Virus record (IMG/VR): IMGVR_UViG_3300044464_000029
Span: 1-63,920 of that record
Direction: 5' to 3' (one strand)
DNA from: a virus
Taxonomy: Duplodnaviria; Caudoviricetes
DNA length: 63,920 bases
Below the pieces are notes generated by a model. That model was given only the letters and a program-made list of their open reading frames with translations, ran no database searches and was not told where the DNA came from. This document shows positions 1 to 61,027 of the stretch, piece after piece. Position 1 is the first letter of the stretch; every line of letters begins with the position of its first letter. Position numbers and translations under genes: made by a program.

Positions 1-183
1 AGAGCTCGGTATATTGGTACTAACTAAAATCAATCTAAACAAAAACATTATTGGTACACTATGCCAATAACCAATAGTTGGCAAGTCATGAAGCCAATTT
101 GCATGTATAATTCCAACCATAAGCATGAAAATCCAGCCATAAAGCATAGAAAAAACCAATGCTAATGACCAAGATAGTGCCAT
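1..183 (-). CDS. Small hydrophobic (membrane) protein running off the window start
   Basis: ATG at 183, open to base 1; continues GAT TCA TCT TAG across the 63920/1 join if the window is circular. Confidence 0.45.
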   Translation of the reverse strand, partial: MALSWSLALVFSMLYGWIFMLMVGIIHANWLHDLPTIGYWHSVPIMFLFRLILVSTNIPSS

Positions 184-1113
184 TGCAAACAATAATAAAT
201 TCAGTTTTGCCTTGAAATCATTCATTCGTAGTTGTTTCCAATCCATTCATTATCTTCGAGATCAATGTGCGGCATTGGGTGGTTCATTTCACTAACACAG
301 TAATTGCCAGTTAAACGTGGATGTTCCATTCCGCACTCTGGTTCTGCGTCGTCGAGTAGTACCTGTGGGGTTTTTTGAGTTAGCATTTCAACCTTTGTTA
401 GGTGGTTAGGTCGATACCAATCAGGACAGTTACGCTTATGAAGTATGTATCCGTTCTTCGCCTTCGAATGGCAAATCAGGCACTTCATTCCACAACTTCC
501 TAACTTCTTCTCGACGGAGACTGAGCTTTTCAGCGACTTCGACAATTCGCTGTTGTGCCAACAGATTTTGATCTAGCTCAAATCGTCTACGTGCCGCCTT
601 TATGTATAACTTAACAAATTGTTCCATACCTAGCGTCATTTGAACACCTTAAGAAATAGTAGATAACCAATCAAAAGTGCTACTGGCCATGCCATAGTTT
701 CAATGATATCCATTTTTATCCTTTGTTAGTTGAGCAACACACCACAGGAACGAGTCCTGTAGCATGCAATTCAACTAAACCTCCAAAATACTAGGATTAT
801 AGTAATCCAAGTCAGTATACCGACACAAAGTGCCCAAAGCCATTTTTCTTTAGAAGCTGTTGGACGACCTATCAATGATAAAGCCATCAAAAATATAAGG
901 GTGAAAGTAAATATGATGTTGAATTTGATAGCATTATTCATAATCATGAATGGTAAGCAGCTTCGTCATCTATGTCATCAATAACTTTTAGCACATCAAG
1001 CACGGGTACATCGAGCAATGCTGCCATATAGGCAATCAAGCGTTCTAGCTCTCGATCTACAAATTTCATGTGTCCTTCGTACATTTCTTTAATCATGTGC
1101 TTTTTAACATCGT

Positions 1114-1872
1114 TCATCCGATTGCCCTACGTCCGCCACCTAGTCCAGTCTGACCAATGTTGGCACTACGTCCGGCAGACTGTCCAGCACCGTAAGCCGT
1201 ACCACTAGAAGCACGAGCATTCATATCAATGCGCCGGGTATGCGGATGATCGACATTAAACGCAGCCATGACGGCTACTTCTCGTGTCTTCAATACAAGC
1301 TCCATGCCACTACCTGTGTGGCTCTCACTGACATCGGACTTCGCTTTGCTATATGCTTTAATAACCCGATCAACTACAGTATCAACATAGCCAACTACAA
1401 ATGAACTATTGAAGGTTTTACCATGCATATGGGCAGGCTTATCCGCAGTAACCAGCGAAGTTGCCATCTGAATGTTCAAAGAACCATACAACATGAGAAT
1501 TTTCTCAATGTCACTTGGATAACCATAGATCTGCATGATGGTCTTAGGATCTGGCTCACGCTGTATACCATTGCGACGGCCAGGCTTCCTTTGCGACATA
1601 CCCATCATAATACCATGAGCACCAAACGTCTTAACAATTCCCCATAGAAGTGTGACCTTGGAATTAATGTACGGTGTCCCAATGGTGAATCTAACTGAAG
1701 TGACTACTTCAGGCTCCGCCTGTCCGGCATTCAGCATAGCTTGTTCAATGCCATGCTTGGCCATCAACGTAGTCATCATTTCTACAATGGAGTTACGCTC
1801 TTCCATCGTAGTAGCAGAGTTTTCAGCCTTTGCCATCATTTTTTGTAGAATTGTCAACCATTTATCGTCCAT
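1114..1872 (-). CDS. DUF2786-domain protein
   Basis: N-terminal KMMAKAE...EERNS...LMAKHGI pattern and C-terminal AYGAGQSAGRSANIG typical of the family; RBS GGAGG. Confidence 0.7.
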   Translation of the reverse strand: MDDKWLTILQKMMAKAENSATTMEERNSIVEMMTTLMAKHGIEQAMLNAGQAEPEVVTSVRFTIGTPYINSKVTLLWGIVKTFGAHGIMMGMSQRKPGRRNGIQREPDPKTIMQIYGYPSDIEKILMLYGSLNIQMATSLVTADKPAHMHGKTFNSSFVVGYVDTVVDRVIKAYSKAKSDVSESHTGSGMELVLKTREVAVMAAFNVDHPHTRRIDMNARASSGTAYGAGQSAGRSANIGQTGLGGGRRAIG

Positions 1873-4095
1873 TTATTTCCTCCATTTTATAGTTGTATAA
1901 CAATGTACTGGTGCTAGACCAGTACAAAGCAATGCAACTACTTGTTACGATTTTCTATCCAGCGAAGATAGCTCAACTTTTTAAAAATATATGGAGTAAT
2001 CAACGGCGAAAATATACGCCAATTGTATTCGTATTTTTCTGGATCTTCCTTGTAAAGAATAGCCCAAGCAATAAAGCCGAGAACTTGATCAAAAGCAAGA
2101 ATCCAAATGATTAACAAGATTACATCATCGCTCATGCTCGAATAGCTCTCTGGTAATAGAACCGATAAATCAGCATGATCGTACGTACGATAACCAGTAG
2201 TTGTAAGGCAAACATCCATACAAGCAAGAATGCCACATGTGGATGCATTACCGCTCGATTCGCTGACCAAAAGTTGGCGAACCAGGCCGCATATCCTTGA
2301 TGTGCGTGTACAAACTAGCAGGCGATAGCTTAGCCGAGGTAATACTACCCTTGGTCATGCCCTCATACGCACGAGTCTTCTTCTTCTGTGACTTTTTCTG
2401 CTTGGTACCGAACTTCCGACTCATTATTTATTCCAATCCTTCTGTTGTTTTATATGTGTGCCACGAGATCGTAAAAGCATTTCTAGGTTATCGCAACGCA
2501 ATTCCGCTGCTATTTGCAACTTACTTCTAGTTTCGGCATCTACGGCTACCTTCGCGCTGCCATCATTGGCACAAGAAGCGCAAGTTTCCGGTAGATGTCC
2601 ACGTCGAGAGGGAATTGCTTTCATTTCTTGACAATGTTTACAGAAAAAGAACGACATTTTCTCTTCTGTTACAAAAACTTCCATTTTAGTTTTCTCCTTT
2701 ATGTTTGAATAAATAGCACGCCTCCGGTAGGAAACACCCCACAGGAAGCATACTAGCTATTCAATTACGCAGTTGAAACTCAAAGAGGCAAGTACGCCAG
2801 TTGTCGTCATATCCACCGAAGTCTCGGCTTGGTGATAGTCGAGCCTGAATGACATCACGATCCCAGGGAGAATTACGCAATTCCCAAACTCCCATGGCAA
2901 GTGTACCATTCTTCAAATAGTCTTGCAATGCCTCTTCCAAGAATCTCTTACCAACTTTTCTAACTACTGCCCCCGTGCTTCTACTAACTGCAACGTACGT
3001 TTCCATTTTATTCCCCTATTTTCAATATTTTTAGGCGTCTTCTGTAAGAGCCATCAAAAGCTGGTAACCGTTCAGTTACAATTTTAGCCGTGAAACGTTG
3101 TCCAAACATTAATATAGCTGCACTATCCATTAATTCAGTCAATCTGAACCGATCTACCATACCGCCAAGAATAAGTTCTAGACTCTTTTTGTAGTGTACT
3201 GGGTTCATGTCAGAAATAATATGATAATATTCTGCATATTTGTATGGTCCATCATCTAAGACGATCAAAGTTAATGCGATATAGTATCTTTCTGTACTTC
3301 TGAATCTTTTTATTTCACTTTTGCTTACTTCGAATTGATATTTTCCGTCTGGTATGTACATTTTCACATCCCTTTTAGTAGTACAACACCACACAGATAC
3401 TAGATCTGTATGATGCAATTCTACTAAAGCGGTGGTTCTTCCCATTGTGGTACTACGTTATGTACAGTAGAACCAGGATCATTCAAATCGTCTAATTCAT
3501 CATTGATGTACTTGTCTATTTGCGAATCTTTGTAACGTTCACAAGCACTCATGTATGCGTCGAATCGATGTAGAAGATTCAAACAGCCATTATAAAAATC
3601 ATTGTCTGTCGTATTGCTACCAGGTCCATTTTCGCTAGAGAATTTCCGCAACAATACACGAAACTCAGTTGGAGTGAGCATCATTGCGTCTGAATGGAAC
3701 ATGATTTCAGTCATTTTTAGGTAAGATCTCCCAATCTAGTTTGATTACTAGTCTACGCTTAACGATCGTGTCAACTGATTTACCAGCTATTCCATCTATC
3801 CAGGCAATAGGACAAGTAGGATCTGCTCGATAGGAATTACGGTGCATATTTTCTTTCTTTGACCAGTGTTCCGCTGCATGCTGTGTTTCAAAATCTCGGA
3901 TCGGACTGTTAAAAATCCAAGCATCTTTTTCACTTATTTCTGCGAGGATATCGTCTTCATTCCACACCGAGTATTCATATTCAACTTTTGCATCTGGCAT
4001 ATTAAATCCTTGTCCGTTTTGTTATGATTGTACCGATGAAGACACAAATGTCCAATTCATGTCATCATAGCTGCAATCACTGGCTGTCTACAAAA

Positions 4096-4124
4096 ATCAT
4101 AGCGCACTTAAACACGTTCCGCAA
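4096..4124 (-). promoter_or_regulatory. Housekeeping-sigma promoter
   Basis: TTGCGG-17 bp-TATGAT on minus strand with upstream A/T tract. Confidence 0.6.
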
Positions 4125-7100
4125 GATACTCAAAAATTTATTTCTCCGTACAGTCACTGAGACTCCACCCTGCCCAAAGCCTTTTCTCGCGTCAGCGACC
4201 CGTACAGCAGGCGGCAAGCCCTATCCTGTGGGGTTCCACCAGCTACACCGTCAAGATCAACGATCTTGTTAACAGAACCCCACAGGTATGAACTAAGCCT
4301 TATTACCTGTTACATACTCAAAATGATTGCAAGCAAAGACATAACACTGAGTCCAGGTACATCCTCTATCTTGGGCGCTCTGTGCTGCATTCATAACTGT
4401 CTTGGTTAGTTCACTGAATTTGTAACCAAATGAAAGAGGTGTCTTACCTTCAATTTCTAGTAGTTGGTCAATAGTCCAACCAAGCTTTTCTAACACCCTG
4501 CCAATGAGACAGCTAGCACAACCATTATCTACATAGTAACACTTTGGCCACGAACGTTCGCCGTGTGCTATTCTTTGATAGGTAAAGTCACTACCTGCTT
4601 CATCAACAACTTCACGCATAATCCCTAAAACGTGCTTACACTCTTCAATAGTTTCATCACTAAACTTTGCCATTTTTTCTCCTACCTGTTACTTACTTTT
4701 TCAACGACTTCTTGGTCCCATTCTTCGTCAAGACCACCTACGCGAACAATAAGTCTACCGCGTGTTAGGATCTCTTGTACCTTGCCCCATGTCTTACCAG
4801 ACTTGACCATTGATCCTACATAGATCCTGTCCATTTTGCTCCTTATTAATAGTACATTACCACACTGGTGTCTAAACCAGCATGATAAAACACTATTAAA
4901 GCATAATAAGACTGCGCCACCTAATTTTATTGCACTTGGTGCAAGTCTTTTCTTGGTAGTGACAGATCACGTTCCATACCTTTATTTCGCTCCATTTTGT
5001 GTAATTATGCCAACAGAACATTAATATGTCCTCCGTGTCTTGACTTTACCACACTTAATACATTCTTTCTTTTGATAAAGATAAACTATGCTTAAGTCAG
5101 CAACAGGATCAAACCACTCTGTGTATTTATGCCAGCAAAACATTAATGCCTCCAATCACGATATCTACGAAAGAACAACCATAACACCCAATTTGGCGTC
5201 GAAATTATTATTCCATTGATTTTCTTCCAACTAATTTCGTCTTTCAATACTGCATGACCATTCTCTTCTGCGTATGACCAATGCAATCCGCGACTTATCA
5301 AATTCCAACGTGTTCGATGGAAATAATAGAATTTTTTAAGCAACGTAGTTTCCATTCTTGTCTACGTTCGCGAGCCGATGTCCGTCGACAAAGAATACGT
5401 AGTGTGTAAATGCTCTGTTCGTTTGGGTCTTGCGATCAACATTTTGTGCATTTACATTCTGGTAATAAACTTTTGGAACACCATTTGTATTCCATTCCAG
5501 TACAATGACCGCAGTATAGACATCCATTCGTTTGTGTTGACCATGCAGCGGTCCACCGGAAAAACGCATTGTTGAATAGGCAGGACCGCAATTTTTGATG
5601 TGTCTGGCTTCTGACTGTGACTCAATATAATCACCACAATCACAATTTTCCATACCATATTTACAGGACATTTACCACTCCAATATAGTTAGTTGTACAA
5701 CACAACGCAGGTGCTAGACCCACATCATGCAATGCAACTAAGTCCATTGCTTTGGATATGCTCCACCATTAATCAAATTTTCATCTAGTTGGTCAACCTT
5801 GCTACATAGTTCATAAGCGGCATTGTGCCATTCACTATCACTGTTAGTATTCTTCATTACTCCCAGAAGCTGCCTGATCTCTTCGAGCGTTTCTGTTGAA
5901 TTGAACTCAGCCATATTCTATATTCTTCCTCAGCTCTATAATGTTTCTGCCATAAATCCTTTATACCACTCATAGTGGTCATACCACAAGTACACAAATG
6001 CATAGTAACTCGGCCGAATAAGCCTACCTTTTTGACTGACACGAAATGTTCGTAAGCGGCCGTGTGCCACTCGTCTGGAATAAAACCCAAAAGCCTTACT
6101 CCTATCTATTAGATATCCAACACAACACAGGCATTGCTATCCTGTATCATGCAAAACATCTAAGCTAATCTCAACGCTTCCTGCTGGCCGTACACAGCAA
6201 GCGTGACATGCCAGCGATCATTCTCATGACGCCAACCTTCACTCCAACTGTCTTTGACATCATCACAGTATTGGATGAAGTCATTCAAAAATCGATGTGC
6301 ATGTCCATTCTTTAGTTCTACTTCAGTAAAGGTGAACTTAGCAATTACCTTTTCCATCACGGTACCGGATCATTCTTCGGCCATTCTCCGCTGGCTTGTA
6401 GCCGTTCTTTTTCTGCACGTCGTTCTACAGCTTCATTTTGTAGCTTCTGATTGCGCAAGAATTTTTCTTGTGCTTCATTAAGCTCTCGCTGTGAACGTTG
6501 TTCGTCTGTCTCATCAGCCACGATCAATTACCTCTGCATTTCTGCGGTTGCATTCTTCAGAAGCTTCTTCGTAAGTGTCAAAATCCACAAACACATAGGC
6601 AGTACCCTCTTCTATGTGTTTAGCCCACTCACTGAACAATGCTACACGGTACTTATCTGTTGGATTCGAAATGCTATTTTGAAAAAGAATCACATACGCA
6701 TCTGCTACTCCGTATGTGATTCTAGCCATTGGTATCTCCAACGTAAACATCTTGGGAGGTAACTGTTTCACTGAAGTCGACTTCTTCATATTCCATCGCT
6801 TCAGTAAAGAGATCCATTCTCTCATCATGACTAAGATCTCCCGTACACTTGATTGCTTCTTCAAGCGTCATATTAGGGTAATGTTCCTGATCGAACGGTA
6901 CCTTAGTAACAAGAGTAGCCGTTCTACGAATAACAATTTCCTTCTTTGTTTCCATTCTTATAACCTCTTCAACTTCGTTGTGATGTTTCCAAGGACAATT
7001 ACACCCACATCGGATGCAATCAGTACAGAAACACACGGGCCAGTCTGCATAATCCATTTTATCTCCTAACTAATAGTACATGACGGCACCCGCAGACACA

Positions 7101-8690
7101 AAGCCCACAGGTGCCATCAAATGCTATTAGTCAATACATCGTACATAGTGGTCGAGCGCCATCAACGCCTTGATATTATCAAAAACCAGGCAAGATGAAT
7201 GTCCTAGTTGGTCAATAATTTCAAAGCGAATGGCAGCCAAGAAATCATCTTTATCGAGGATAGTACCAGTACTAGCAAAGGCAGCGAATTGTATTCCTCG
7301 TACGCCACCATCAGCCCACCAAGATGCAATTTCCCGAGCTACTTCGGTGTGAATAATTTCCGTGAAGTATGGCCGCTTTATCCAGTGATCAACTTGCCTA
7401 ACAATGAACTCAGACGTATTGTCCATTGGACAAGGCTGCATATACTCTGGTGGTTTGTGATTCCCAGTACCACGCATTAGTTTCGACCTTTCCAGTTGAT
7501 AAAGAAGCTAGCAAACAACGCTCCGACGATAGCCATCAAAGCCAACATCGGACAGGCTATTGTCCAAAACTTATCCATTTTACTCCTCCTTATTAGTCGT
7601 ACATGAATGCGCTAGTTTACACTAGCACAAACAAATGCGGCTAATAATCAGACAATGCTACAATTTGCTTAAATGTATTCTCTGCCAACTTGTACACATC
7701 CCATGGCTTTCCATGAAAGGTATCAAATTCCACTTGCATCAAGGCCGCTTCAATGATCCTAGCAGCATCGCTTTCATCTACTCTAATAGTAATGCTCTTT
7801 GCCATTTTATTCCTCCATTATTAGTTATGCATGACGCTTCCCGAAGAACCCCACAGGAAGCATCAAACGCAACTACTCCGGCTGCACTAATACTTGTTTG
7901 ACCAAGTCTTGCGATGCTGTCTCATGTATGCCCTGCATCCACTGCATGACGTCGGGCCAGGATAGCCCCCGTTCCAGCCCGCTAGTACCATTACGCCAAA
8001 GTATTACCAGTGTGAATTTACCCACCGATTCCCTCCAATTGTTTCAATTCTTTAGGACTCTAATGTAATATCATCCACTGGGAACAGTTAGCAATGTAAT
8101 GAATCTCTGCTACACGCATGAGATCGCTAACACGTCCAGTTGTGATATTCAATTCGTAGTACGACAACGCAAAATCAAATTCTCTTTTGTAAATTACGTA
8201 ACCATTAGGCATTCTAGAAGTATAAGACTTCTTTCCGCCCAAAGGCTGGTAAGCGAACCATTCAATACCGTTGTCTATCACTTTGTCATCCTTTGGTCGA
8301 ACAACACGACACAGGATTGATCCTGTATCATGCAGAACGGCCAACTTTATTCTTGGTAGCTGTGTCCTTCAATCTTACCATGCCCACAACGGATGGCAGC
8401 AGAACCACCAGGACAATTGTACGGCACTTCGATGTTCATTACTACCATAATAAATTGATGTGCGTTCACTTGGCTATGTGCGGAACATCGAACTTCTTTA
8501 GTTCCGCCACTACACCACTTAGTTACTGTTTCTGCCATTACTACTAAACTCTCTTCCACTTAGTCAGTACAATACCGAGGGCAACCAACAGTCCACCGGT
8601 AACTACTGCACCAAGGTACAAAATTGCAGCTTCCATTTTATTTTCACCTTCTTACTTTAACTGTCAAAAACTTGACACAATTAGGTAAGC

Positions 8691-8730
8691 AAAAAGCCCA
8701 CAGGCAGGGTTCTTACCTATCCTATGAGCT
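8691..8730 (-). terminator. Intrinsic terminator after 8729-9100
   Basis: Stem GCUCAUAGG...CCUGUGGGC followed by UUUUU on minus strand. Confidence 0.65.
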
Positions 8731-9100
8731 AGATCCAACTACTTGGGTTGTCATTACTACCCGAACCGGACCACCATGAACCATGCCCTTGTCCGGTGTG
8801 ACCACTTACTTTCCTTGCTACGTCTTCGATTTTCTTCCGCATACTAGAACTGACCTTACCGCTTTTTGCCAATTTAGCTAATTCATCTGCCGCGTGCCTG
8901 CGTGCGTCGACAGCATACTGCGCTGCCCTTTTGGCACTGGTATTGCCCTTGGCGACTGAATTAGCTGCCCTGGCAACGGCAGTTTGATAGTCATTTAGTA
9001 GACTTTTGGCTATTGCCTTTGCTTTGTCATCATTGGATGCCAACTTAATTACCTTTCGTTGTTCTTTTTCTTTGTTGCTGAGTGGGCCAGGACAGCTCAC
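8729..9100 (-). CDS. Hypothetical basic, Ala/Lys-rich protein
   Basis: 123-aa ORF followed by terminator. Confidence 0.6.
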   Translation of the reverse strand: MSCPGPLSNKEKEQRKVIKLASNDDKAKAIAKSLLNDYQTAVARAANSVAKGNTSAKRAAQYAVDARRHAADELAKLAKSGKVSSSMRKKIEDVARKVSGHTGQGHGSWWSGSGSNDNPSSWI

Positions 9101-11168: not shown

Positions 11169-12459
11169 TTTTGTTCGTCACTCTCTGTGTTCATGAGGTA
11201 GCACAGGGCTTTAATTCGGTCTTATGCCTCATGCTACCACATGACTACAGGGGCTGTGTCAACGGCTCTCAGAGCAAGATCAAGATGTTAATTATTTTAA
11301 AGTTTCTTGTTCACGACTTTCAGAGCCGTCTTAAAGGCGTAGGAAAGCGGTTTCCTAGAGCAATATTTTGGTCTTAATGTATGTGTTGATCAACACATAT
11401 AACTAATATGGACGTGCTAAAGTTCCTAGATTTTTGTGACGCAATTAGGGTCCCAAGACCAGCGAACTTAAGACGCATGATCGGTAACTCTTGGCACCTA
11501 AATAAGTGTGTCTATCTTAGGACACCCCAATAAATAAGTAATTTTAGTACAATTGTACACGTGAGTTTGAAGGCAAATGCCCGTTTTCGTTCGAACATCT
11601 GTATTAAAACCCGATAATACATATTAGTTGATGTTTCTACTTTAGGGGGGTAGGTTTTTTGGGGGTTGAATACAGGTGGTACCTGTGTGTGAATGTGTGT
11701 GAATGGTTCTGATGTGTAGTTTGGGTGTTATGTCCGATTCCTTGATCATCCGCTGTTGAGAGCCCCGTGCTGGGCTCCAAAGATAGAAATAAGCTTTTAA
11801 GCGTATTAAGGAAAGGTCACCGATTCCCAGCAAAAGGGCCAATTCTTTAGGACCTGATGGGGTATGGTTAAAAATGTCCGAATTGCACCGTACACCGATT
11901 TGATGATCATCGATGTACGATGCTAAATCGTACATTTCACGTGCTATGTGCTATTTATGTCATTTTTATGGTGATTTGGGAATGATTAACCCATGTTGCA
12001 TAGATTGATTGTATCTATTACCAAATGAAGTTGTATCCAGCCAAACGGGTGGATGTAGATGGACCTGTGGCTGAAAGTCTCGCTTCTAGCTCTGGTGAAG
12101 CAATTACGCAGTCTGTGCCCTTACGGTAGATAAGTCCGATTTCGTTCGGTTGCTGCATAGATATCGGCTTTGATCCGTATGTGGTGAATGTGTGCTTTGT
12201 CCGCTTTCCCCGTTGTTTGGTGGTATAGGGCATAGGTACGGTTGGCTCATGTTCGGGCGTTGCCATGCTGTATGCTCCTAATGTCCGTTTTGATGCTGAT
12301 TGTCTTGCTGTTTGTTGATCTTGATGCACTGTGCTTGGTGCTAGCACCCTCCGATGGGTCTTAAGACCCATCTCAGAGGCTCGCTGGCTTGATTTCCTGC
12401 CGTCTCGGTCTCTCTGTATGGGTAATGATGTGGATCTTGTTAGGATTGCTCTCAGCGGG

Positions 12460-13413
12460 TTAGTCTCCGTGGATCAAGGTCCATTCGTACGTGTGTTCGT
12501 CAAACTGTACTACATTGTGCGGTGCGCCTATACCATCCCCATATGGATTGATTTGGTGAATAGTATGGTTAATTGGGTTGTTTGTTGGAATTGCGAAAAT
12601 TGAGATGATTAGTAGAATTAAGATAGTTAAATCACTCCTTAGGTAGACATTCGACATATGGGATTTTAATGTTGAATTCTGCCCATATGTCTGATGAGTA
12701 CCTAATTGTTGGTTTTCCACTGTATGTGATTCTTACCGCATTTGCACACTGTTTGTGCAATAATGTCCTTTTCGTACTGCTCTTCGATGAATAGGGCTGC
12801 ATCTTGCAATCCAGCCCTATAGGCACTATTTAGTGCGTTTGCAGCTTCTGTGGCGTTTTTCTTTGTTGTCCCTCCTATGACAGTTCCATTCATTTGTCCG
12901 TTTATGTACCTATCTACGTAGTATTGGCCATATCGACCGCCTACTTCGTATTTGGTACCTTCTGTGGGCTTTGTCATGAAATAGGCCCTTTCTAGGTAGA
13001 CATAATCTGGTATGTCCGTTTTGAGCGGACATACCAGATTAAATCCGACTAGCTGCTACCTGTGGATGCTTCCATGTACGTTTTGGCTTCATTCTTGCTG
13101 TTTGCCTCATGTACTAGTGTAAGAGACATTTCCTTGCTATTGTTCGAATTGAGTGTAATCTTACTTACACGCCATTTTTGACCAAAAGACTCCCTAATTG
13201 CCATGTATTTATCAATTACGAAGTATTCGCCTTCTGTGCTGTTTACCATGCTACTGTCCCCTTAAGTACTACCTTGTCTGCCTTTGTCCTAATAATTGCA
13301 GACTTAAGCAGAAAATGTAGATTGTCCGATTCCTGCTCATTTGCCCAATTCCTTAGGCTTGTATTAGCTTTTCGGATTTGTGACATTTTGAGCACTACCC
13401 GGGCCTTGTGCAT
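12460..13413 (-). other. Small hypothetical early genes (12460-12720, 12702-12977, 13049-13249 and an ORF starting at 13413)
   Basis: Packed minus-strand ORFs with RBS. Confidence 0.55.
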
Positions 13414-13478
13414 TTTTACTCCTATTAGGTGGACATGAATGCATATGTCCGTTGTGGCCCATATGCAAACAAATTCAC

Positions 13479-13649
13479 CTAGTAGATGCTGGAAAAGTCT
13501 TCTTCGTCGTAGATGTCCGAATCGTAGAATTCGTCGTAAGTATCCCGATCGTACTCTTCGTCGTCATCCTCCCAAATGTCCAAATCGTCTAGCAAATCGA
13601 CATTTCCGCCGTTTGCGTCTTCATACGCCGATTCGAGCCACTCATCCAT
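13479..13649 (-). CDS. 56-aa very acidic protein (possible DNA mimic)
   Basis: MDEWLESAYED...DEEDFSSIY; GGAG RBS before ATG at 13649. Confidence 0.65.
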   Translation of the reverse strand: MDEWLESAYEDANGGNVDLLDDLDIWEDDDEEYDRDTYDEFYDSDIYDEEDFSSIY

Positions 13650-13748
13650 TTTTGATCTCCAAATCGATGTCCAAAATGTGTTTGAAACTCTCCACTTAGG
13701 TGGATTTAACCACAGTGGGCCATTTTGACCCACTATGACTAGAACGAC

Positions 13749-14366
13749 CTAAACGTTCACTTTGTCCTGAATGTCGGGCTTTGTGGTATGAGGTACTGTT
13801 TTGCGAGGTGCACGCTTTACGGGTGGCTTTGTCTGTTTCTGTGGGGTTTGTCCTGAAACGACCGCTTCTTCCGGTTTGTCCACTTTTGTCGGCTTTGCGT
13901 TAGTTGACACCTTTTGAATCAGAATCGCCGTTGCTAGTGCAGTTGGGATATCTACGATGAATGGGTAGAATAAGGCAACAATCCAATGCTGTCCGTTTCT
14001 GACCGTTAACTCCCAAATGTGGAAGCCTGAAATCCCGAATGCTACTATAGCGACAAATCCCAACCCAAACCAGACTAAACCCTTCTCAAACTTGTTTTTC
14101 GGGGTATAGTAGGCAATTAGGTGAACTGTGCCAAAGAAGACAATTGTGGGCGCAACCGACGTAATGATCGGTTCCATGTTAATAGCCCCAGATCGGACAT
14201 TTGCATACGTACTGTATGCAAGCCCCAAAAGCATGACCACGAATGCGTACCTTTTCCCCTTTTGTAGCCTTGTGAGGGGAATTTTCCGCTTAGCCTCTTT
14301 TGTCCGATTAAACATTGTCTTGGCCCTTTCAGGTAGGGATGGCACAAAACGGACAGTTTCGTCCAT
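13749..14366 (-). CDS. DUF2637-like multi-pass membrane protein
   Basis: Four hydrophobic segments, VAIVAFGISGFHIWEL...YPFIVD motif, basic Pro-rich tail. Confidence 0.6.
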   Translation of the reverse strand: MDETVRFVPSLPERAKTMFNRTKEAKRKIPLTRLQKGKRYAFVVMLLGLAYSTYANVRSGAINMEPIITSVAPTIVFFGTVHLIAYYTPKNKFEKGLVWFGLGFVAIVAFGISGFHIWELTVRNGQHWIVALFYPFIVDIPTALATAILIQKVSTNAKPTKVDKPEEAVVSGQTPQKQTKPPVKRAPRKTVPHTTKPDIQDKVNV

Positions 14367-14599
14367 TCTGCACCATTTCTACCTGAAATGAGTGACATAC
14401 ACTATTTAGGTATTAATGTCCGATTTGCCAGCTTCGAGGTTCCCCTGTCAGCTCTGGCTCCCCGTTTTCGTTCTACTGCAAGTATACCATGTGCAAAATG
14501 GACATTATTATAATAAGCCATATACTGCACTGTGACTTGAGTCACATTCTGGTACAGGTAATATGTCCAGATTTAGGCTGCCATGCCTGATTTGTCATA

Positions 14600-14953
14600 C
14601 TAAAGGTGGTGAACAGAGCTAGGTGCCTCGATTTGGTACAGAAGATCTTGTATCCGACTTACCCATGCATATGCATCCAGATAGGTGAAATGCAGACTAC
14701 ACCAGACATAGAGTGCAGATCCGTCTTTTGCTGGTAAATGGTACGAAAGCTCCGAATCGTACTTCTCATACGGATTGTTGGTCACATGCCACAAAATCGT
14801 GACATGTCCGGTTTGTCCGATGAAGAAGTCATTCGACTGATTCGTAGCGCTTCCATCCCAACTGTCCCCATAACCGACAGGAAGTGCCGAATCGTCCATA
14901 ATGTCCGAATGGTAAGCCATTTCCGACATGTCGTGGATTTCGTTATTGTCCAT
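14600..14953 (-). CDS. Hypothetical protein (IR cassette 1)
   Basis: ORF with AAGGGG RBS enclosed by IR pair. Confidence 0.7.
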   Translation of the reverse strand: MDNNEIHDMSEMAYHSDIMDDSALPVGYGDSWDGSATNQSNDFFIGQTGHVTILWHVTNNPYEKYDSELSYHLPAKDGSALYVWCSLHFTYLDAYAWVSRIQDLLYQIEAPSSVHHL

Positions 14954-15032
14954 TTTTGCCCCTTTTGATGAGGCATGGCAGTCTAAAACTAGACATATGT
15001 AGATTTAAGTGGACATGTCCGCTTTTTCTAGT

Positions 15033-15299
15033 TTAGCGGGTTTGTCCGATTTCCCACAGATTGTCCATCTCTGTGGTAGTATGGGTGGGAATGTAATCTT
15101 GATGCCAATTGTACCGCATTGCGTGTAACATGCACAATTGCAGCCATCTGACCGTTACATCTACCTCTGCGTCGGTTTTGGCTCCGCCGTCTGGTTCGTG
15201 AAACTCTGTAATGATTCCGACGCAAACGCCCTGATTGCACGTTTTAATGTCATTGTCCAAATCGAACGGTGTGACCAAAGTTCCGATGTTAAGAGCCAT
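15033..15299 (-). CDS. Hypothetical protein (IR cassette 2)
   Basis: ORF with AAGGGG RBS enclosed by IR pair. Confidence 0.7.
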   Translation of the reverse strand: MALNIGTLVTPFDLDNDIKTCNQGVCVGIITEFHEPDGGAKTDAEVDVTVRWLQLCMLHAMRYNWHQDYIPTHTTTEMDNLWEIGQTR

Positions 15300-15386
15300 T
15301 TTGTCCCCTTTGATGAGGACATGCCCACATAGATCTACATATGTCTTACATGTACGGATATAAGGAGATATGGGCTAGATGTCCGA

Positions 15387-15644
15387 TTAGTTCTTTACGA
15401 TCCAGAATGTGATACCAGGTCCGTAAAATATGAATGCCCATTGGTCCGGATCATCCATAATGCCCTTGTCGCCGTAGATGTCGTTAATGTCCGAAATAAC
15501 TTGGATCCATTCTGGCATATTAGAATCATCCCGGGCAGTTAGGGCAAGGTTGCGCAAAATGCGCATACCCTTACGAAATGTGACATCTCCGGCGAAAGCG
15601 AAATCTTCATAGCCATCGTGCTCAAAGCCAACAGACCATGACAT
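15387..15644 (-). CDS. Hypothetical protein (IR cassette 3)
   Basis: ORF with AGGGG RBS enclosed by IR pair. Confidence 0.7.
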   Translation of the reverse strand: MSWSVGFEHDGYEDFAFAGDVTFRKGMRILRNLALTARDDSNMPEWIQVISDINDIYGDKGIMDDPDQWAFIFYGPGITFWIVKN

Positions 15645-15853
15645 AATAACCCCTGTCCGATTTTGTCAGCCCATATCCCCATATATCCGTACATGTCCCC
15701 CTCCCCCTATATGTCTGAATTTTGCCCATATAGTCGAGAATGCTACAGGGTCCGCCGATTCCTACCAAAAGTCCCAATTCCTTAGGACTCTTATAGGGGT
15801 TCCGCTCGGTATGCACCTTATGTGCACCCTGTGGGGTCTTATCCCTTTCGCCA

Positions 15854-15877
15854 CTTTTGAGTTCTTAAGTTACGATT
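15854..15877 (-). promoter_or_regulatory. boxA-like leader element (second copy 17892-17915)
   Basis: AATCGTAACTTAAGAACTCAAAAG vs AATCGTTACTTAATAACTAAAAAG (21/24 identical), each between a candidate -10 (TAGACT 15926-15931; TAGAAT 17996-18001) and the first cassette. Confidence 0.5.
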
Positions 15878-16055
15878 GTCCGCTTTGGGCGGGACTGCCC
15901 TTTTTCTTTTTTCTTTTTTCTTTTAAGTCTAGCACGGACGATGTCGGAAATTCCCGACTTATCATGCTAAACCGGACATTCTGAAAGTGTGAGTTAAATC
16001 ACACCCAAAATATCATGATTTAGGAGCTTTAGACCGTCATGTCCGGATTTATCAA

Positions 16056-16241
16056 TTACAGTGCGATTTGGGCGTTACGTCGAATTTGGTACATTTTGAC
16101 CACAATGTCCAATTGGCGGTCAATGACGTTAATGTGCGGTTCGTTCATTATGCACAGAAAGTTCTGCTTGTCCATTTTGTCCAAGAAGTCCATCATGCGA
16201 CGAAACTTCCCGATTGTGACTCTTTCTGCTGCTTTTTCCAT
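16056..16241 (-). CDS. Hypothetical protein (IR cassette 4)
   Basis: ORF with AAGGA RBS enclosed by IR pair. Confidence 0.7.
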   Translation of the reverse strand: MEKAAERVTIGKFRRMMDFLDKMDKQNFLCIMNEPHINVIDRQLDIVVKMYQIRRNAQIAL

Positions 16242-16336
16242 TTTTAGTCCTTTGTCCGATTTGGTCGGACATGACGGTTTAGAACTACTAAAGCATGAAT
16301 TATCCTGGTTTAGAAGGCTATGTCTGGTTTGTCGTT

Positions 16337-16552
16337 TTAGTCCTGTGAGCGGTTTTTGCGCCTTTCATCCCGAATTAAGACAAGTGCCCGGTATGTGGCC
16401 AAAACGTCGTCTTCGTCCTTAATGCCGGATTTGACTACTTCGTCGTAAATGGCCTCATTTGTCCAAGTTGAGAGCAATCGGCGTGATATGCCCGTATAGA
16501 CCTTCATGTGCACTTTTGGGGTGGATGTCCAGAGATATGGCAATGTTACCAT
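16337..16552 (-). CDS. Hypothetical protein (IR cassette 5)
   Basis: ORF with GGGAG RBS enclosed by IR pair. Confidence 0.7.
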   Translation of the reverse strand: MVTLPYLWTSTPKVHMKVYTGISRRLLSTWTNEAIYDEVVKSGIKDEDDVLATYRALVLIRDERRKNRSQD

Positions 16553-16646
16553 TTTAGCTCCCTATGTCCGATTTATCCAGACATAGCCCTTTAGACCAGG
16601 ATAATTCTGACTTACTACCTTTTGTCCGGCATGTCTGATTTGCGGA

Positions 16647-16799
16647 TTAATTCACTATAAGAGTGGAAGTGTCCGACATCGCCCAGATAAGCAACATAAT
16701 GAGTGCTATGTTGAACAATGCGGCAATTATTACTTCTACGTGCTTTGTCGCGAATGTCTGAATTGACCAGGTACGCACGTGCTTGCCGTGATATGCCAT
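16647..16799 (-). CDS. Small membrane protein (IR cassette 6)
   Basis: MAYHGKH...; one hydrophobic helix; AGGGG RBS; enclosed by IR pair. Confidence 0.65.
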   Translation of the reverse strand: MAYHGKHVRTWSIQTFATKHVEVIIAALFNIALIMLLIWAMSDTSTLIVN

Positions 16800-16911
16800 G
16801 GTATTCCCCTTTTGTCCGATTTTGGCTGTTTTGGCAGACATGCCGGATAAGAGGTAGTAAGTCTTTAATGTGCCACATGTACGGATATAGCAGGATATGT
16901 CCGATTTCGTC

Positions 16912-17148
16912 CTACTGTGTGATGTTTTGGAACGATTCGGCCGCATTCAGCCAGCTATGCGAAGAATGCCACCATTTGTCCGTTCTGTCCTCTGAGTCCC
17001 AAATGACCACATAGAACCCATTGCCCATATTGTCGCATATGTCCAATTTGACCACTACGACCGTATTGTCCGAATTGTAGTAGTGTGGCGCAAATGCCAC
17101 GATCTGCCCGTATTTCTCCATTTGCGCAATAACATCCAGAATGTCCAT
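16912..17148 (-). CDS. Hypothetical protein (IR cassette 7)
   Basis: ORF with AGGAG RBS enclosed by IR pair. Confidence 0.7.
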   Translation of the reverse strand: MDILDVIAQMEKYGQIVAFAPHYYNSDNTVVVVKLDICDNMGNGFYVVIWDSEDRTDKWWHSSHSWLNAAESFQNITQ

Positions 17149-17243
17149 CTTTGTACTCCTATGTCCGATTTATTCGGACATATCCTGTTAAATCCGTACA
17201 TGTCCAGAATTATCCAGGTTTGGGAGGGTATGTCCGTTTTATA

Positions 17244-17531
17244 CTAGACGCAGCCGATTCGCCACGGTTCGACGGATATAACACGACTTTCCGGGACAAT
17301 CTCCCATACAAGCCGCAATTCCGACTCAAGTGGTGCATCTGGGTACATTTGGAACGCTTCGCGCATTTCGACCATATCGCCCATATTGGGCAGATCAGTC
17401 ACAATGTAGACAAAGTTGGATTTTCCGTCCATAACGGACATTTCGTATTCTTCGAAGAATTCGGTAAAACCCACCGTTTCTCCGATTTTTACGGTATATC
17501 CGTTATTGTCCACAAATTCGCCAAGTTTCAT
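17244..17531 (-). CDS. Hypothetical acidic protein (IR cassette 8)
   Basis: Start MKLGEF at 17531 after GAGGAG; enclosed by IR pair. Confidence 0.7.
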   Translation of the reverse strand: MKLGEFVDNNGYTVKIGETVGFTEFFEEYEMSVMDGKSNFVYIVTDLPNMGDMVEMREAFQMYPDAPLESELRLVWEIVPESRVISVEPWRIGCV

Positions 17532-17632
17532 AATAACTCCTCTTATGTCCGATTTGTCGGACATACCCTCTCAGACCCGGATAATTCCGGTAAGACCTCC
17601 ATGTACCCTATAACCGACATGTCCGTTATTCC

Positions 17633-17818
17633 CTAGTTTGTCGGATTTAGCAGTTCTGCTAGCTCAATTCGGGCTTTTTCCTCTATTTGCGACATTTCCT
17701 TGTAAGTCGGGCATGTCGCCTTTTTACACCCCGAATGGGTCCGAATGTGGACATTTACCTTATCCACTAGGTTTTCCCAGATTATCACCTTTTTGGCGGT
17801 TTCTCCACGAAATACCAT
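17633..17818 (-). CDS. Hypothetical protein (IR cassette 9)
   Basis: Start MVFRGE at 17818 after GGGAG; enclosed by IR pair. Confidence 0.7.
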   Translation of the reverse strand: MVFRGETAKKVIIWENLVDKVNVHIRTHSGCKKATCPTYKEMSQIEEKARIELAELLNPTN

Positions 17819-18448
17819 GTTAACTCCCTCTATGTCCGATTTAGTGGACATGTCGGTTATGGGGCACATGTGGCCTTTGTCCGATTTTCCTCTTTTTAGT
17901 TATTAAGTAACGATTCGGGGGAATTTCACCGGTTTGCCGGAATTTTCCGGTATTTCCGTTTTCCACCTATTGTCTTGTTTTTCTGTTCTGCCTTAATTCT
18001 ACAGGGGCCCTATATGGGCCATATGTCCGATATAGGGTATATATCATGACATAGTGGGTCAAAAAATATACCCCTATGTACTACTATATACGGCATATCG
18101 GACATATACGGGCACAAGGCCCAAATGGGATGTTGATCTGTGACACAGGTCACAGTGTGGGTAGTATGTCAACATATAGTGCACATAACGGACATGTCGG
18201 ACAGGACATGTCATGATAAATCCGGACATACCGGACTGTGATGCTCGTCACAGTGATTTGGGTCACAGACAAAGTGGACATTTAGTAAATATTAACTATA
18301 TTATGTTATAAGAGGATAAAAAGGACATTTGGTACGTAAGAAGTAGATCAGAGTGGTAAAAAAGTGTTCGAAAGTTGACACTAATCATATATACGTTTTC
18401 CAAAATTTTATAAGGCTTTTCAGAAAGGTGTTAGAGACTTGACATGTG

Positions 18449-20549: not shown

Positions 20550-22991
20550 ATGTTAACTGGTGGACGAGCGGTCTCTAAAGAAAAGTATTTTGAGCATATT
20601 GGCTATAAGCCACATGAGAAGCAACAACTGTTTCATGATAGCAACGCAAGATTTAAGATTCCTGTATGCGGTAGAAGATTCGGAAAACTTCTCGATGTAA
20701 ATACAATAATTCCAACAGTTAATGGTATGATTAAGATTGGCGATTTGTCTGTTGGAGATCAAGTATTTGATGAGAATGGTTTAGTTTGTAATGTTATAGG
20801 TGTAAGTGAAATACAGCACCGCGAAGATGTATTTGAGTTAACGTTCGACGATGGCAATACATTAGTTGCACATGGTGAACATGAGTGGCTAACATATGAC
20901 AAGAAAGCTCGAAAGACACGTGATTCTGTCGATAGCTTACATGCATCTGATAGTCGTAGAAAAATTGTACCCCCCGCAGTTAGAACTACAAACGAAATTA
21001 GAAACACATTAATTGCACTAGGAGAAACCAATCACGCAATTGAGCTGACTAAGCCAATTGAGTACCCAAAGCAAGATTTGCCTATAGATCCATATTTGCT
21101 AGGTGTTTGGCTTGGTGATGGTAGCACTAATGATGGCGTAATTACCTTGCCTGATTATGACGAATGGATCTTAAGCAAGATTCAAGATCGTGGTTATGAA
21201 ATTACAAGAACACAAAGCAAAGATCGTTGTCCGCAATGGCGTGTACTTGGCTTACGAACCTTGTTAAAAGATAATTTCTTACTTGGCAACAAAAGAGTTC
21301 CAGTTGCTTACTTGTATGGTAGTGTGGAACAACGTAGAGATCTACTACATGGCTTGATGGATACAGATGGTACAGTAGGAAATAATCATGTGGATTTTGA
21401 TAATACTAATGAAAAACTTGCTGCGGTTGTTGATTACTTGATTTGCTCTCTTGGCGGTCGAGTGACTAGATCAAAGCGCATTGGTAAGCTGTATGGTGTA
21501 GAAAAGAAAATGTGTTACAGAGTGCATACCGGAAACATAATTGATGTGTTTAGTTTGCCTAGAAAATTAGAAGCCCAACAGAAATTACCATTCAGAAATC
21601 GTTATTATAGATTCATAAAATCAGTTGAGCCTGCCACACCAAGACTGATGCGTTGTATTGCTGTAGATTCTCCTTCAAATTTGTATTTAGCTGGCAAAGC
21701 TTTCATTCCAACTCACAATACATACATGGGAGCAAGAGAGGCTGAACCTCTCTTGATGGTGCCGAATAAGCACATATGGATCGTTGGGCCAACTTATGAT
21801 CTTGGAGAGAAGGAATTCCGGGTCATTTGGCAAGATATGATTGTAAAACTGGGTATGGGTCGCGAGAAGCAAATTCGTAAAGCATTCAACAAACGTGCTG
21901 GCGATATGTTTATTGAATTCCCCTGGAATACTAGAATTGAAGTGAGATCTGCCGATCGACCGGAAACTTTGGTCGGTGATGCTTTAGATTATGTAATTAT
22001 GGCAGAAGCTGCTAAGCATACTAAAGAAACCTGGGATCGTTATATTAGACCAGCGCTAGCCGACCGCAGAGGTTCCGCAACCTTCAGTACGACACCCGAG
22101 GGTCAGAATTGGATTCATGATCTGTGGCAGCTTGGTCGTAACCCACTCTTCGATGATTATGAATCGTGGAGATTTCCATCTTGGGAAAACAAAGTAGTTT
22201 ATCCTGATGGTAGAAACGATAAAGAAATAATTCTACTTGAACGAACAATGCCGCCAGAATGGTTCTTACAGGAAATTGCGGCTGATTTTACTAGCTTCAT
22301 GGGTAAGATTTACTCGGAGTGGGATGAAATAACACATGTTAGGCCACATAAATATAACCCACTCTGGAAAAATTATATAGCATTTGACTGGGGTTTCGTT
22401 AACCCAATGGCCGCAGTAGAATTTCAAGTTGATCCAATGGATCGCATTCATGTTTGGCGTTTGCATTACAAGACACATACCAGACTTGAAACATTCTTAC
22501 ACCAAATGCAAGACAGAGAACAGCCTGAAGGTTATAAAATTGATCTTTGTTTCGGAGATGCTGCGGATCCTGAAGCAGTAGCAACAGTGTGCGCAAGGTT
22601 CGCTCCTTGCATTGCTGATCCGCTTTCAAAGTCAAATTGGCGAGAAGGCATAGATTTAGTAAAAAGTTTTCTCTCGACCCGTACCGTAGGGTACCTCGAC
22701 GAATTCGAAACACCGCTAGACGAGCCATGGCTATTTGTAGACCCTGCCTGTGGGGATTTGATCCGCGAGTTCAATAACTACCGGGCGGTTGCACCTAGTT
22801 CAGGTAAGCCGAGAAACCCGAGAGAAGACGCCCAGAAGTATGATGACCACGCACTAGACGCATTGCGCTACGCTTTAATGCATATTTTCAAACTTGGTGC
22901 AACCATGAGCTTGAGTGAAGTTATGATGGATCAGATAATGGAAGATAAACCAGCCACAGGTTACTTTACCTCAAATAAGGAATTTGTGTGA
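20550..22991 (+). CDS. terL: Terminase large subunit with intein
   Basis: Walker A CGRRFGK/T split by intein; TTPEG coupling motif; nuclease DWGF and DDHALDALRY motifs. Confidence 0.93.
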   Translation: MLTGGRAVSKEKYFEHIGYKPHEKQQLFHDSNARFKIPVCGRRFGKLLDVNTIIPTVNGMIKIGDLSVGDQVFDENGLVCNVIGVSEIQHREDVFELTFDDGNTLVAHGEHEWLTYDKKARKTRDSVDSLHASDSRRKIVPPAVRTTNEIRNTLIALGETNHAIELTKPIEYPKQDLPIDPYLLGVWLGDGSTNDGVITLPDYDEWILSKIQDRGYEITRTQSKDRCPQWRVLGLRTLLKDNFLLGNKRVPVAYLYGSVEQRRDLLHGLMDTDGTVGNNHVDFDNTNEKLAAVVDYLICSLGGRVTRSKRIGKLYGVEKKMCYRVHTGNIIDVFSLPRKLEAQQKLPFRNRYYRFIKSVEPATPRLMRCIAVDSPSNLYLAGKAFIPTHNTYMGAREAEPLLMVPNKHIWIVGPTYDLGEKEFRVIWQDMIVKLGMGREKQIRKAFNKRAGDMFIEFPWNTRIEVRSADRPETLVGDALDYVIMAEAAKHTKETWDRYIRPALADRRGSATFSTTPEGQNWIHDLWQLGRNPLFDDYESWRFPSWENKVVYPDGRNDKEIILLERTMPPEWFLQEIAADFTSFMGKIYSEWDEITHVRPHKYNPLWKNYIAFDWGFVNPMAAVEFQVDPMDRIHVWRLHYKTHTRLETFLHQMQDREQPEGYKIDLCFGDAADPEAVATVCARFAPCIADPLSKSNWREGIDLVKSFLSTRTVGYLDEFETPLDEPWLFVDPACGDLIREFNNYRAVAPSSGKPRNPREDAQKYDDHALDALRYALMHIFKLGATMSLSEVMMDQIMEDKPATGYFTSNKEFV
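20688..21719 (+). mobile_element. Class 3 intein with LAGLIDADG endonuclease (344 aa), Leu at position 1
   Basis: LLDVNT...; W in HEWLT, C in MRCIAV, T in THN; +1 Thr; LGVWLGDG and GLMDTDG motifs. Confidence 0.88.
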
Positions 22992-46995: not shown

Positions 46996-47642
46996 TATCC
47001 TTACCTACAGTTATTTCTTTCTTGGCCTTCAATTCATGCATAGCAATCAAACCAAGAACTTGATACCAAGGCATGTCGCCATTGGACATGAACATTGGAT
47101 ATTCTGTTACAACTACACCTTCAGGCCATAGCTGTTGCATCGTTGTTAATACAACGAAATTAACCAAAGTGTATTGACTAGCATGTTCTGGCATGTATGC
47201 TTCAAGACAACCTTGTATAGCTAAGGACAATACTTCGTCTGCCTTAACTTGCGCTTCATTTCTAACTTCAGTCATTGATTGCACCTACTAATTCGGTTTT
47301 GATAACTTCTCCTAGTAATTGCTCTTCATAATATTCTAATGGCATGATACATATATTCAATTCGAAATCCCAAATAGATCCTGATAGTGTGCAGAACACA
47401 TCCACAGAATGTCTCATCTTCACTAGATCTTCTGGTGGTGCATCTTTGTGTTCTTCACAACCAAAACCGCCAGGATGCAAACCTTCTTCATCAAGAGTGT
47501 CAAACATGAAATGAACCACCACAGGAAGCGCATCACAGTCTAAACTAGGATCGTAGGACTCGCCAGGAATACCACTGTTGTATCCACAAGAAGGTCTGTC
47601 TCTCAATGCACCAACTCGATTATCCATTACAACTCCGACCAT
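46988..47642 (-). other. Two hypothetical genes (46988-47284, 47268-47642)
   Basis: Overlapping minus-strand ORFs. Confidence 0.6.
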
Positions 47643-54811: not shown

Positions 54812-54897
54812 ACTTACCCCTTAGGATGACAGAAGCCAGCCCATACCTACTATCAATAGATATGGACTGGCCTCTTAAACAATTAACGATTTAGATA

Positions 54898-59378: not shown

Positions 59379-59769
59379 TTGTTATCCTTTGTTAAGTTTC
59401 CATGACCACACATAGGTTGTCCTATGTATGATCAAAGCAACTTATTTTGCTAGATTGTGCATCTTATCATAGTGTCCGATGTGGAATGGAACGTTGTTCA
59501 TGGCGGGTCTATATGGATTAGCATTTAGATCATATCTTTGTATCTTTTGCCAAAACCATATCTTCTTACCACACTGCCCACAAATCATATTACACCTTAG
59601 AATGGTTTATTTGTATCTGTTCTTCCATCGCCTTCATCATACTTGATGTGCTTGTCAGATGCTAGATCTGCTTTCCAAGCGGCAGCACTACCAGAATGAC
59701 CACAAGAACATATCCAATAGCATCGTTCATCTTTGTCTTCTGGATAAGTATATATTTTATGTTCAGTCA

Positions 59770-60792: not shown

Positions 60793-61027
60793 ATTTTTCC
60801 TTAATGTTAAAGTGTCCATGTGCACGTACGTACTCATTAAATCAAATGTGCACGTACGTGGTCAAAGAAACTTTACGTTGCTGGTGTTTGTATATTTAGA
60901 ATCCAATTCCAGAACCCAGCCCAAACCTCTGGTACTCCGGCCCTGATCATGACCAATATTGCTAGAAATCCAATTACCATTAGGATCTTCTTGAAAGTTC
61001 CCAAAATTCATATCCAATCTTAAATTG

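Follow-up and report, generated by a model that had tools for sequence, protein, structure and literature searches.

Intercistronic RNA hairpins with a conserved mismatch box in the early operon of an uncultured siphovirus-like phage clade, and their possible role in RNase III-type processing

The early genes of an uncultured siphovirus-like phage, IMG/VR virus record IMGVR_UViG_3300044464_000029, were punctuated by a family of hairpins named here R1. The record was analysed in its entirety as one window of 63,920 bp (linear class, completeness about 84%) and carried 16 R1 hairpins, all on the minus strand, which is the gene strand at these places. Twelve lay within 0.7-8.3 kb and four were outliers at 12990, 13423, 59390 and 60806, so that 14 copies belonged to the early region and two to the replication module. 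Judged from their sequences, the R1 hairpins are RNA-level structures with real compensatory change, conserved through the phage clade. Their T7-like layout makes them candidate RNase III processing and stabilising signals, a reading in which our confidence is about even.

All hairpins named in an earlier note on this DNA were recovered by an inverted-repeat search combined with RNAfold, as long, imperfect hairpins of 51-68 nt; the note had counted eleven in 0.7-8.3 kb, a number that rose to twelve R1 members. The hairpins shared a 7-bp lower stem (commonly UUAGUUG pairing with CAACUAA), followed upwards by a 1x1 mismatch, 2 bp and a U.U mismatch, then by an upper stem of at least 13 bp whose sequence varied by copy, and a loop of 4-7 nt. 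GC content ranged from 0.31 to 0.48 and fold energies from -17 to -39 kcal/mol. Z-scores against dinucleotide shuffles were between -2.98 and -9.70; none of 200 shuffles folded as stably for 15 of the 16 copies, and one of 200 did so for the hairpin at 4025-4079. The copies are listed below with their shuffle z-scores and their scores under an R1 covariance model trained solely on these 16 window copies, each of which is therefore a training member. Positions of stop codons are counted from the start of the stem and those of the Shine-Dalgarno sequence (SD) from its end. The last line gives a stop-to-SD hairpin of another sequence type.

724..780 (paired 726-778), minus strand: R1 hairpin; 58.4 bits; z -6.76; upstream stop UGA at +5
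1887..1943 (paired 1890-1940), minus strand: R1 hairpin preceding the gene for a conserved protein of 252 amino acids (aa); 59.7 bits; z -4.53; stop UAG at 0, SD at +7
2703..2766 (paired 2705-2764), minus strand: R1 hairpin with A-U in place of U.U and CCUGUGGG in the apex; 41.5 bits; z -7.85
3373..3429 (paired 3374-3428), minus strand: R1 hairpin; 66.1 bits; z -6.73
4022..4082 (paired 4025-4079), minus strand: weakest R1 member, with A-U in place of U.U and a promoter-like TTGGACA-N16-TACAAT inside; 37.1 bits; z -2.98
4844..4901 (paired 4846-4899), minus strand: R1 hairpin; 59.3 bits; z -5.84
5687..5743 (paired 5688-5742), minus strand: R1 hairpin near the family consensus; 61.4 bits; z -4.22
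6107..6165 (paired 6109-6163), minus strand: R1 hairpin; 55.7 bits; z -6.62
7068..7132 (paired 7069-7131), minus strand: R1 hairpin with a long upper stem and CCUGUGGG in the apex; 55.7 bits; z -9.70
7591..7646, minus strand: R1 hairpin; 59.6 bits; z -4.51
7819..7878 (paired 7822-7875), minus strand: R1 hairpin with CCUGUGGG in the apex; 50.6 bits; z -7.08
8291..8346 (paired 8293-8344), minus strand: R1 hairpin; 53.1 bits; z -5.91
12990..13054 (paired 12992-13052), minus strand: R1 hairpin; 43.4 bits; z -9.07
13423..13484 (paired 13426-13481), minus strand: R1 hairpin, the sole copy whose plus-strand fold was slightly stabler; 48.7 bits; z -4.47
59390..59447 (paired 59393-59444), minus strand: R1 hairpin preceding the PD-(D/E)XK exonuclease gene of the replication module; 55.9 bits; z -6.68; SD at +4, ATG at +15
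60806..60877 (paired 60808-60875), minus strand: R1 hairpin preceding the gene for a 340-aa vWA-like protein; 47.5 bits; z -6.97
4225..4286, minus strand: stop-to-SD hairpin of another sequence type; perfect 12-bp base formed by CCUGUGGGGUUC and its complement

The fixed mismatch geometry with compensatory changes that the earlier note had described was borne out by the alignment of the 16 window copies (MAFFT, with the structure written from one member). Paired cells accounted for 93.2% of the alignment compared with 65.7% after shuffling, 19 of 22 pairs showed compensatory changes, and slid controls, in which the partner was shifted by 1-3 columns, gave 27-44%. RNAalifold, run independently on the window copies, found 19 of 20 pairs compensatory. 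Since the window copies are paralogues and the shuffle control yields no probability, the argument is carried by the slid controls and by independent sets of copies.

Such sets were obtained by building the covariance model and scanning related genomes, as the earlier note had proposed. The nearest relatives by tblastn were two complete virus records with terminal repeats, G006 (80.2 kb) and G007 (75.8 kb), with identities of 84% for the capsid, 84-85% for the terminase, 80% for the helicase and about 70% for the polymerase. They were located with an IUPAC pattern made from three copies, and the model was then run over 80 kb with filters off (E<1e-4), giving 12 copies in G006 and 13 in G007; all those of G006 were on its minus strand and all those of G007 on its plus strand, which is the gene strand in both genomes. 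Searches of the whole records placed every match within one (early) region per genome; these hairpin regions were collinear with the early region of the window, and the majority of their small genes were not common to it. The three-phage alignment (34 copies) was 94.0% paired versus 66.8% when shuffled, with 21 of 22 pairs compensatory. A pattern scan of metagenome contigs returned 16 stretches, two of them being G006 itself, and the remaining 14 loci (35 kb), searched with filters off, yielded 27 R1 copies, of which 23 were distinct and 11 of the 27 stood outside the pattern selection. The 23 distinct copies were 95.6% paired versus 75.7% shuffled, with 18 of 22 pairs compensatory; the 34-copy and metagenome alignments were fitted to the R1 model, which favours the structure somewhat. 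Slid controls across all alignment sets remained at 23-49%, and no insertion or deletion occurred in the 22 modelled pairs in either the 34 or the 23 copies.

The same alignments identified the strand on which the hairpins fold. G.U and U.G cells outnumbered A.C and C.A cells by 112 to 13, and by 93 to 9 in the second set (about 9:1), in agreement with the earlier note, which had placed the G-U pairs on the transcribed minus strand. This excess of wobbles indicates that the mRNA strand is the folding strand, and the asymmetry reads as a signature of selection on the mRNA and not on duplex DNA or on the opposite strand. The minus-strand RNA was the stabler fold in 15 of the 16 window copies, and the training copies scored 37-66 bits on the minus strand (by construction) versus 10-21 bits on the plus strand. 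Covariation was confined to the two arms of each hairpin. Folding of each hairpin on itself is thereby favoured over pairing with its neighbours, and the link to gene-enclosing stems drawn in the earlier note is not. Homologous genes of different phages were preceded by hairpins with quite different stem sequences, for example the conserved 252-aa gene in the window (G000), G006 and G007; no confirmed relative was obtained when its protein was queried against viral contigs. The Rfam comparison, also proposed earlier, returned no match in Rfam 15, either at gathering score for the whole window or at E<=1 for positions 600-8500, and a limited literature search found no paper on the R1 family.

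A conserved weak box lay near the middle of the helix, 5'-R U U N N A U opposite 3'-Y G U N' N' U G. Its steps were, in order, a U.G wobble, the U.U mismatch, two pairs of variable sequence, one A-U pair and another U.G wobble. In 14 of the 16 window copies the U.U mismatch was the eleventh step up from the base. The earlier note had given 2706-2763 as the only copy without it; that exception stood (2705-2764), and 4025-4079 was a second, both carrying A-U. The mismatch was retained in 31 of the 34 copies from three phages and in 22 of the 23 of the metagenome set. Around it, the 34 copies showed U.G in 26, then two covarying pairs, A-U in 29 and U.G in 26. A second mismatch position, three steps before U.U and separated from it by exactly two pairs, lacked a pair in 25 of 34 copies, 17 of which had C.A. 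With 22 modelled pairs and two mismatch steps, the helix counted 24 steps, or about two turns. About half of the copies had loops reading CUAGY.

Between genes the hairpins lay much as the earlier note had located them, from the stop codon to the next ribosome-binding site (RBS). Counted from the first base of the stem, the upstream stop codon started at 0 to +5 nt in 14 of the 16 copies and at -5 and +11 in the remaining two, with similar positions in G006 and G007. The SD started 0-10 nt past the stem in 13 of 16 when located by script, and a start codon was seen by eye within about 15 nt in the other three. TAG was the stop codon at 8 of the 16 hairpins, compared with 26 of 111 genome-wide in crude gene calls. 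Gene junctions in 0.2-8.6 kb were bimodal, with 19 overlapping or separated by at most 8 nt, one of 34 nt and 13 of 48-76 nt. Every one of these 13 long gaps contained a hairpin: twelve held R1 copies, and the sole one without held the hairpin at 4225-4286. Outside the early region, the relative L009, which encodes an 80%-identical helicase, had a hairpin (2623-2696) at the place matching 60806..60877 of the window.

Promoter-like sites were no commoner in 1-19 kb than in shuffles (45 versus 42.5) and overlapped only the hairpins at 4025-4079 and 6109-6163; a promoter role was rejected on these counts, 14 of the 16 hairpins having no such match. The phage's own promoter-like motif, GGACA-N16-17-xATAAT, was frequent in 16-18 kb and occurred in 0.2-8.6 kb only at 5031 and at 4053, the latter inside 4025-4079.

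The closest known counterparts are the early RNase III sites of T7, which we take to be R0.3, R0.5, R1, R1.1 and R1.3 at the positions assumed for them here, the feature table of the T7 record leaving them unmarked. Like those sites, the window hairpins are look-alike structures of about 50-60 nt between the early cistrons of one long message, each having two tiers that together make about two helical turns, with an interruption near the middle and no U-tail. The spacer between T7 genes 0.4 and 0.5 likewise folded in two tiers, its 5' arm containing the stop codon and its 3' arm being followed within a few nt by the SD, which is the arrangement seen in the window. The stop-to-RBS intercistronic position, the helix of about two turns and the weak or interrupted target site are thus common to both systems, and homology of sequence is not. 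The window phage differs in being siphovirus-like, in having 16 copies versus five in T7, of unrelated sequence, and in carrying U.U and a second 1x1 mismatch with conserved wobbles where T7 has an asymmetric internal loop. In Bacillus, conserved early-message hairpins of phage SP82 are described as RNase III sites, being non-native targets of the host enzyme (PMC4838370); it is SP82, rather than the SPO1 named beside T7 in the earlier note, that supplies the Bacillus precedent here.

Related elements were also found in remoter relatives. G001, G003 and G004, whose capsids are about 70% identical, lacked R1 copies save for single matches of 20.8 to 36.6 bits (G003 36.6; whole records), and seven distant-relative loci gave no R1 match with default filters and weak matches only when filters were turned off on five of the seven. 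In the early regions of these three genomes, a family-blind stem finder nevertheless showed long hairpins that resembled one another and were clustered on the gene strand. Thirteen copies, hand-picked for a shared motif from about 40 listed hairpins and hence illustrative, with no value as a census, formed a sister family with a 9-bp lower stem, a 3x3 loop of invariant UCA opposite UAA and a 12-bp upper stem, in which 20 of 21 pairs were compensatory. The layout, which the sister clade keeps, therefore predates the R1 sequence family, and a genuine internal loop can take the place of the mismatches. R1 is a new sequence family of a known element type.

On the reading favoured here, the hairpins are structured elements in long polycistronic early and middle messages, each spanning the distance from the upstream stop codon to the RBS of the next gene. 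Most probably the host RNase III, a double-strand-specific endonuclease, would bind the helix and cut at or beside the weak box. Cutting would divide the operon into pieces of one to three genes, and the stem remnant left on their ends would shield them from exonucleases, as at the T7 early sites. For R1, the structure, its strand, covariation and placement and its conservation in the clade are established, whereas the enzyme, the cut and any effect on message stability or translation are inferred from the T7-like layout and geometry. According to PMC1540722, the substrates of E. coli RNase III typically extend over two turns of helix, and an internal loop or bulge can confine the enzyme to a single bond, which leaves a protective 3' hairpin; a strong G-C pair beside the scissile bond suppresses cutting, the T7 site R1.1 having U.C there. 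The A-U and U.G steps of the window hairpins are the same pair types as the UA/UG distal box given in those pages for E. coli, in a different order. Cleavage sites in vivo lie two stem positions apart (PMC6212723), and two is also the number of pairs between the two mismatches of the window hairpins.

Several observations weigh against RNase III processing. The interruptions are 1x1 mismatches, where T7 sites have larger, asymmetric internal loops, and the sequence is unrelated to those sites, the R1 model giving at best 7.7 bits (E 6.7) on T7 positions 400-8200 with filters off. Because the stop codon lies within the stem, a ribosome that terminates there has to open both the lower stem and the box, so that cutting would compete with translation. 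Single bases are conserved in the box and in the CUAGY loops, which makes a sequence-specific partner possible; RNase III is usually less demanding of base identity than this box. A box that differs between sister clades would also fit a co-evolving phage protein, and a phage-encoded partner is possible among the early proteins, which are mostly ORFans. No RNase III, dsRBD, KH, S1, Cas6-like or other RNA-processing protein was matched in the minus-strand open reading frames (ORFs; 84 searched with Pfam, 65 with PHROGs), weak negative evidence since most of them are ORFans.

The hairpins could instead remain uncut and act passively between cistrons, by blocking 3'-5' exonucleases after decay of distal message, by insulating the RBS, or by coupling translation, the base of the helix bringing the stop codon next to the following SD and the terminating ribosome opening the lower stem. 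The tight spacing of stop codons and SDs, the stable folds and the filling of every long operon gap would all be accounted for in this way. Mismatches that destabilise the stem would, however, bring no benefit to a pure barrier or insulator. U.U and both U.G wobbles were nonetheless kept in most copies, and the constant distances without insertions or deletions suggest that something measures the helix; a passive role is accordingly judged rather unlikely. Alternatively, an RNA-binding protein or nuclease encoded by the phage may bind box and loop, for example a translational repressor that shuts off early genes from beside the SD, encoded by one of the unannotated small early genes. The base-specific box, the CUAGY loops, the adjoining SD and a box variant that tracks lineage (R1 in G000, G006 and G007 versus the 3x3 UCA/UAA loop in G001, G003 and G004) are consistent with it, as are early proteins that almost all lack a family, most of the 84 ORFs having no match. 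The same searches supplied no candidate, neither a dsRBD, KH, S1 or Cas6-like match nor one to an RNase family, and the lineage pattern could equally mirror different hosts, so that such a binder seems unlikely. We give a similarly low chance to a wider version, in which a clade-wide code of stop, hairpin and ribosome site would be read by a dedicated ORFan phage protein rather than by RNase III. The U.G/U.U/A-U/U.G box together with the CUAGY loop would be the recognition site of that protein, which would use them to switch translation or stability of all early cassettes together and would co-evolve with the box between sister clades.

A role at the DNA level, as recombination points or as ends of mobile cassettes that shuffle early genes, after the manner of PeSL cassettes or integron attC sites, is very unlikely. 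Inverted 7-nt ends and a core are common to the hairpins, and they persist among G000, G006 and G007 although the flanked genes are mostly unshared. Against this stand the excess of G.U over A.C and the link to stop codon and SD, which are features of RNA and translation, and the lack of any integrase or recombinase among the minus-strand ORFs searched (84 with Pfam, 65 with PHROGs). Homology breakpoints showed no excess at the hairpins: internal ends of high-scoring segment pairs fell within 20 nt of them in 8 of 72 cases, in a zone holding 8.3% of bases, a comparison of low power in such diverged DNA. The PeSL cassettes of T4-type phages are, in the part of PMC4122927 considered, short conserved stem-loops repeated among variable small early genes in plastic regions, which recalls the window; they are also described there as composite terminator/promoter DNA motifs that mediate recombination. 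In contrast, 14 of the 16 window hairpins had no promoter-like part, none had a U-tail, and their signal was strand-specific at the RNA level; identity with PeSLs was rejected on the two promoter matches (4025-4079 and 6109-6163) and the segment-end counts. Identity with attC was likewise rejected, as no integrase was found in the 84 ORFs, the mismatches are symmetric and not bulges, and the wobbles are on the mRNA strand. Least probable of all is that the hairpins are terminators or attenuators without a U-tract that grade expression along the operon. A stable hairpin does stand straight after the stop codon in each case, but the 10 nt past the stem held only 1-2 U in 15 of 16 copies (four in the other), only two of the 16 appeared in a scan for terminator-like sites, both as sub-stems with weak tails, and 13 such elements in series over 8 kb with only two promoter-like sites would silence the distal genes. 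Intrinsic (Rho-independent) terminators were rejected in particular, in keeping with the earlier note, as their G+C-rich stem and U-tract were both absent at the GC contents and U counts given.

Besides the hairpin at 4225-4286, further long hairpins of non-R1 type occurred at 11179-11256, 13693-13755, 14327-14388 and 54831-54875. Weak candidates under the R1 model were 18031-18077, 13694-13754 (17.3 bits) and 14327-14388 (13.8 bits).

Late genes (terminase, portal, major capsid, tape measure, tail) occupied the plus strand at 18.4-43.7 kb and all remaining genes the minus strand, where the products included a family A DNA polymerase, a primase-helicase, a Sak4-like ATPase, the PD-(D/E)XK exonuclease, a helicase and dozens of small ORFans. 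No cultured-phage relative of window positions 1-9000 was found by megablast, and the capsid and helicase were at most about 30-35% identical to those of cultured phages. Among public sequencing runs, those listed for this DNA were all DNA runs from sediment metagenomes, with no RNA run among them. The primase-helicase (51539-54811, minus strand) had Hint and LAGLIDADG matches at residues of about 419-671, the terminase (20550-22991, plus strand) a weak LAGLIDADG match at residues 261-310, and the DNA polymerase (47627-50914, minus strand) a uracil-DNA-glycosylase-like domain at its N terminus, its two polymerase matches being separated by about 320 residues; inteins or homing-endonuclease inserts are probable in these three genes. 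A 173-aa DEDD exonuclease was encoded at 56844-57365 (minus strand), matching a Rv2179c-like 3'-5' exoribonuclease in Pfam (E 2e-13) and RNase H in PHROGs.

Capsid-gene relatives (75% and 54% identity) stood on L056 and L057, contigs binned into metagenome-assembled genomes labelled Chitinophagaceae, and another on such a contig labelled Candidatus Sumerlaeota, the labels resting in each case on binning only. The first two give a weak hint of a Chitinophagaceae host; the R1 model had no match in two genomes so labelled. The strong SD motifs before the window genes argue against a Bacteroidota host, and the host is probably other than E. coli.

The most over-represented octamer of the window was CCTGTGGG, with 26 occurrences (about 0.9 expected; 1+1 in the reversed control), for example at 362, 2738, 4225, 4279, 7104, 7850, 8697, 10077, 10091, 18846 and 27905. 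It occurred 47 times in G006, 38 times in G007 and at most three times in G001, G003 and G004, and was present in the apexes of the hairpins at 2705, 7069 and 7822 as well as in copies on other contigs. The octamer region and its complement also make up the perfect base of the hairpin at 4225-4286. Homologous alignable sites kept it in 4 of 8 cases in G006 and 5 of 10 in G007. Its occurrence in three reading frames and on both strands (17 sense versus 9 antisense in the window) points to a signal at the DNA level, and we can only guess at a Chi-like or protein-binding site; a literature search for the octamer returned unrelated primer matches only.

The minus strand at 11700-18250 displayed a second kind of punctuation, a motif AAATCGGACA that frequently supplied the 3' arm of a short hairpin, TGTCCGA-N5-TCGGACA, and that directly preceded the SD of many genes at 14-18 kb. 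Promoter-like sites, GGACA-N16-17-GATAAT, preceded several of the genes bearing it, and TGTCCGAT ranked high among the octamers of G003, G004 and G007 as well. The stretch has the appearance of a promoter-rich immediate-early region, contrasting with the hairpin-punctuated operon at 0.2-8.6 kb.

With more than 60 distinct copies on at least 15 phage contigs and strong covariation, R1 is a well-supported, uncatalogued RNA family that is ready for curation. It brings the T7 style of operon punctuation by interrupted hairpins to an uncultured siphovirus-like clade, with a regular and different mismatch box. Together with the promoter-rich stretch at 14-18 kb, the hairpins provide a first map of how early expression is organised in this phage. 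If cutting is confirmed, the box would be a compact, portable processing or insulating element and would open a way to learn which substrates the RNase III of this phage's host accepts.

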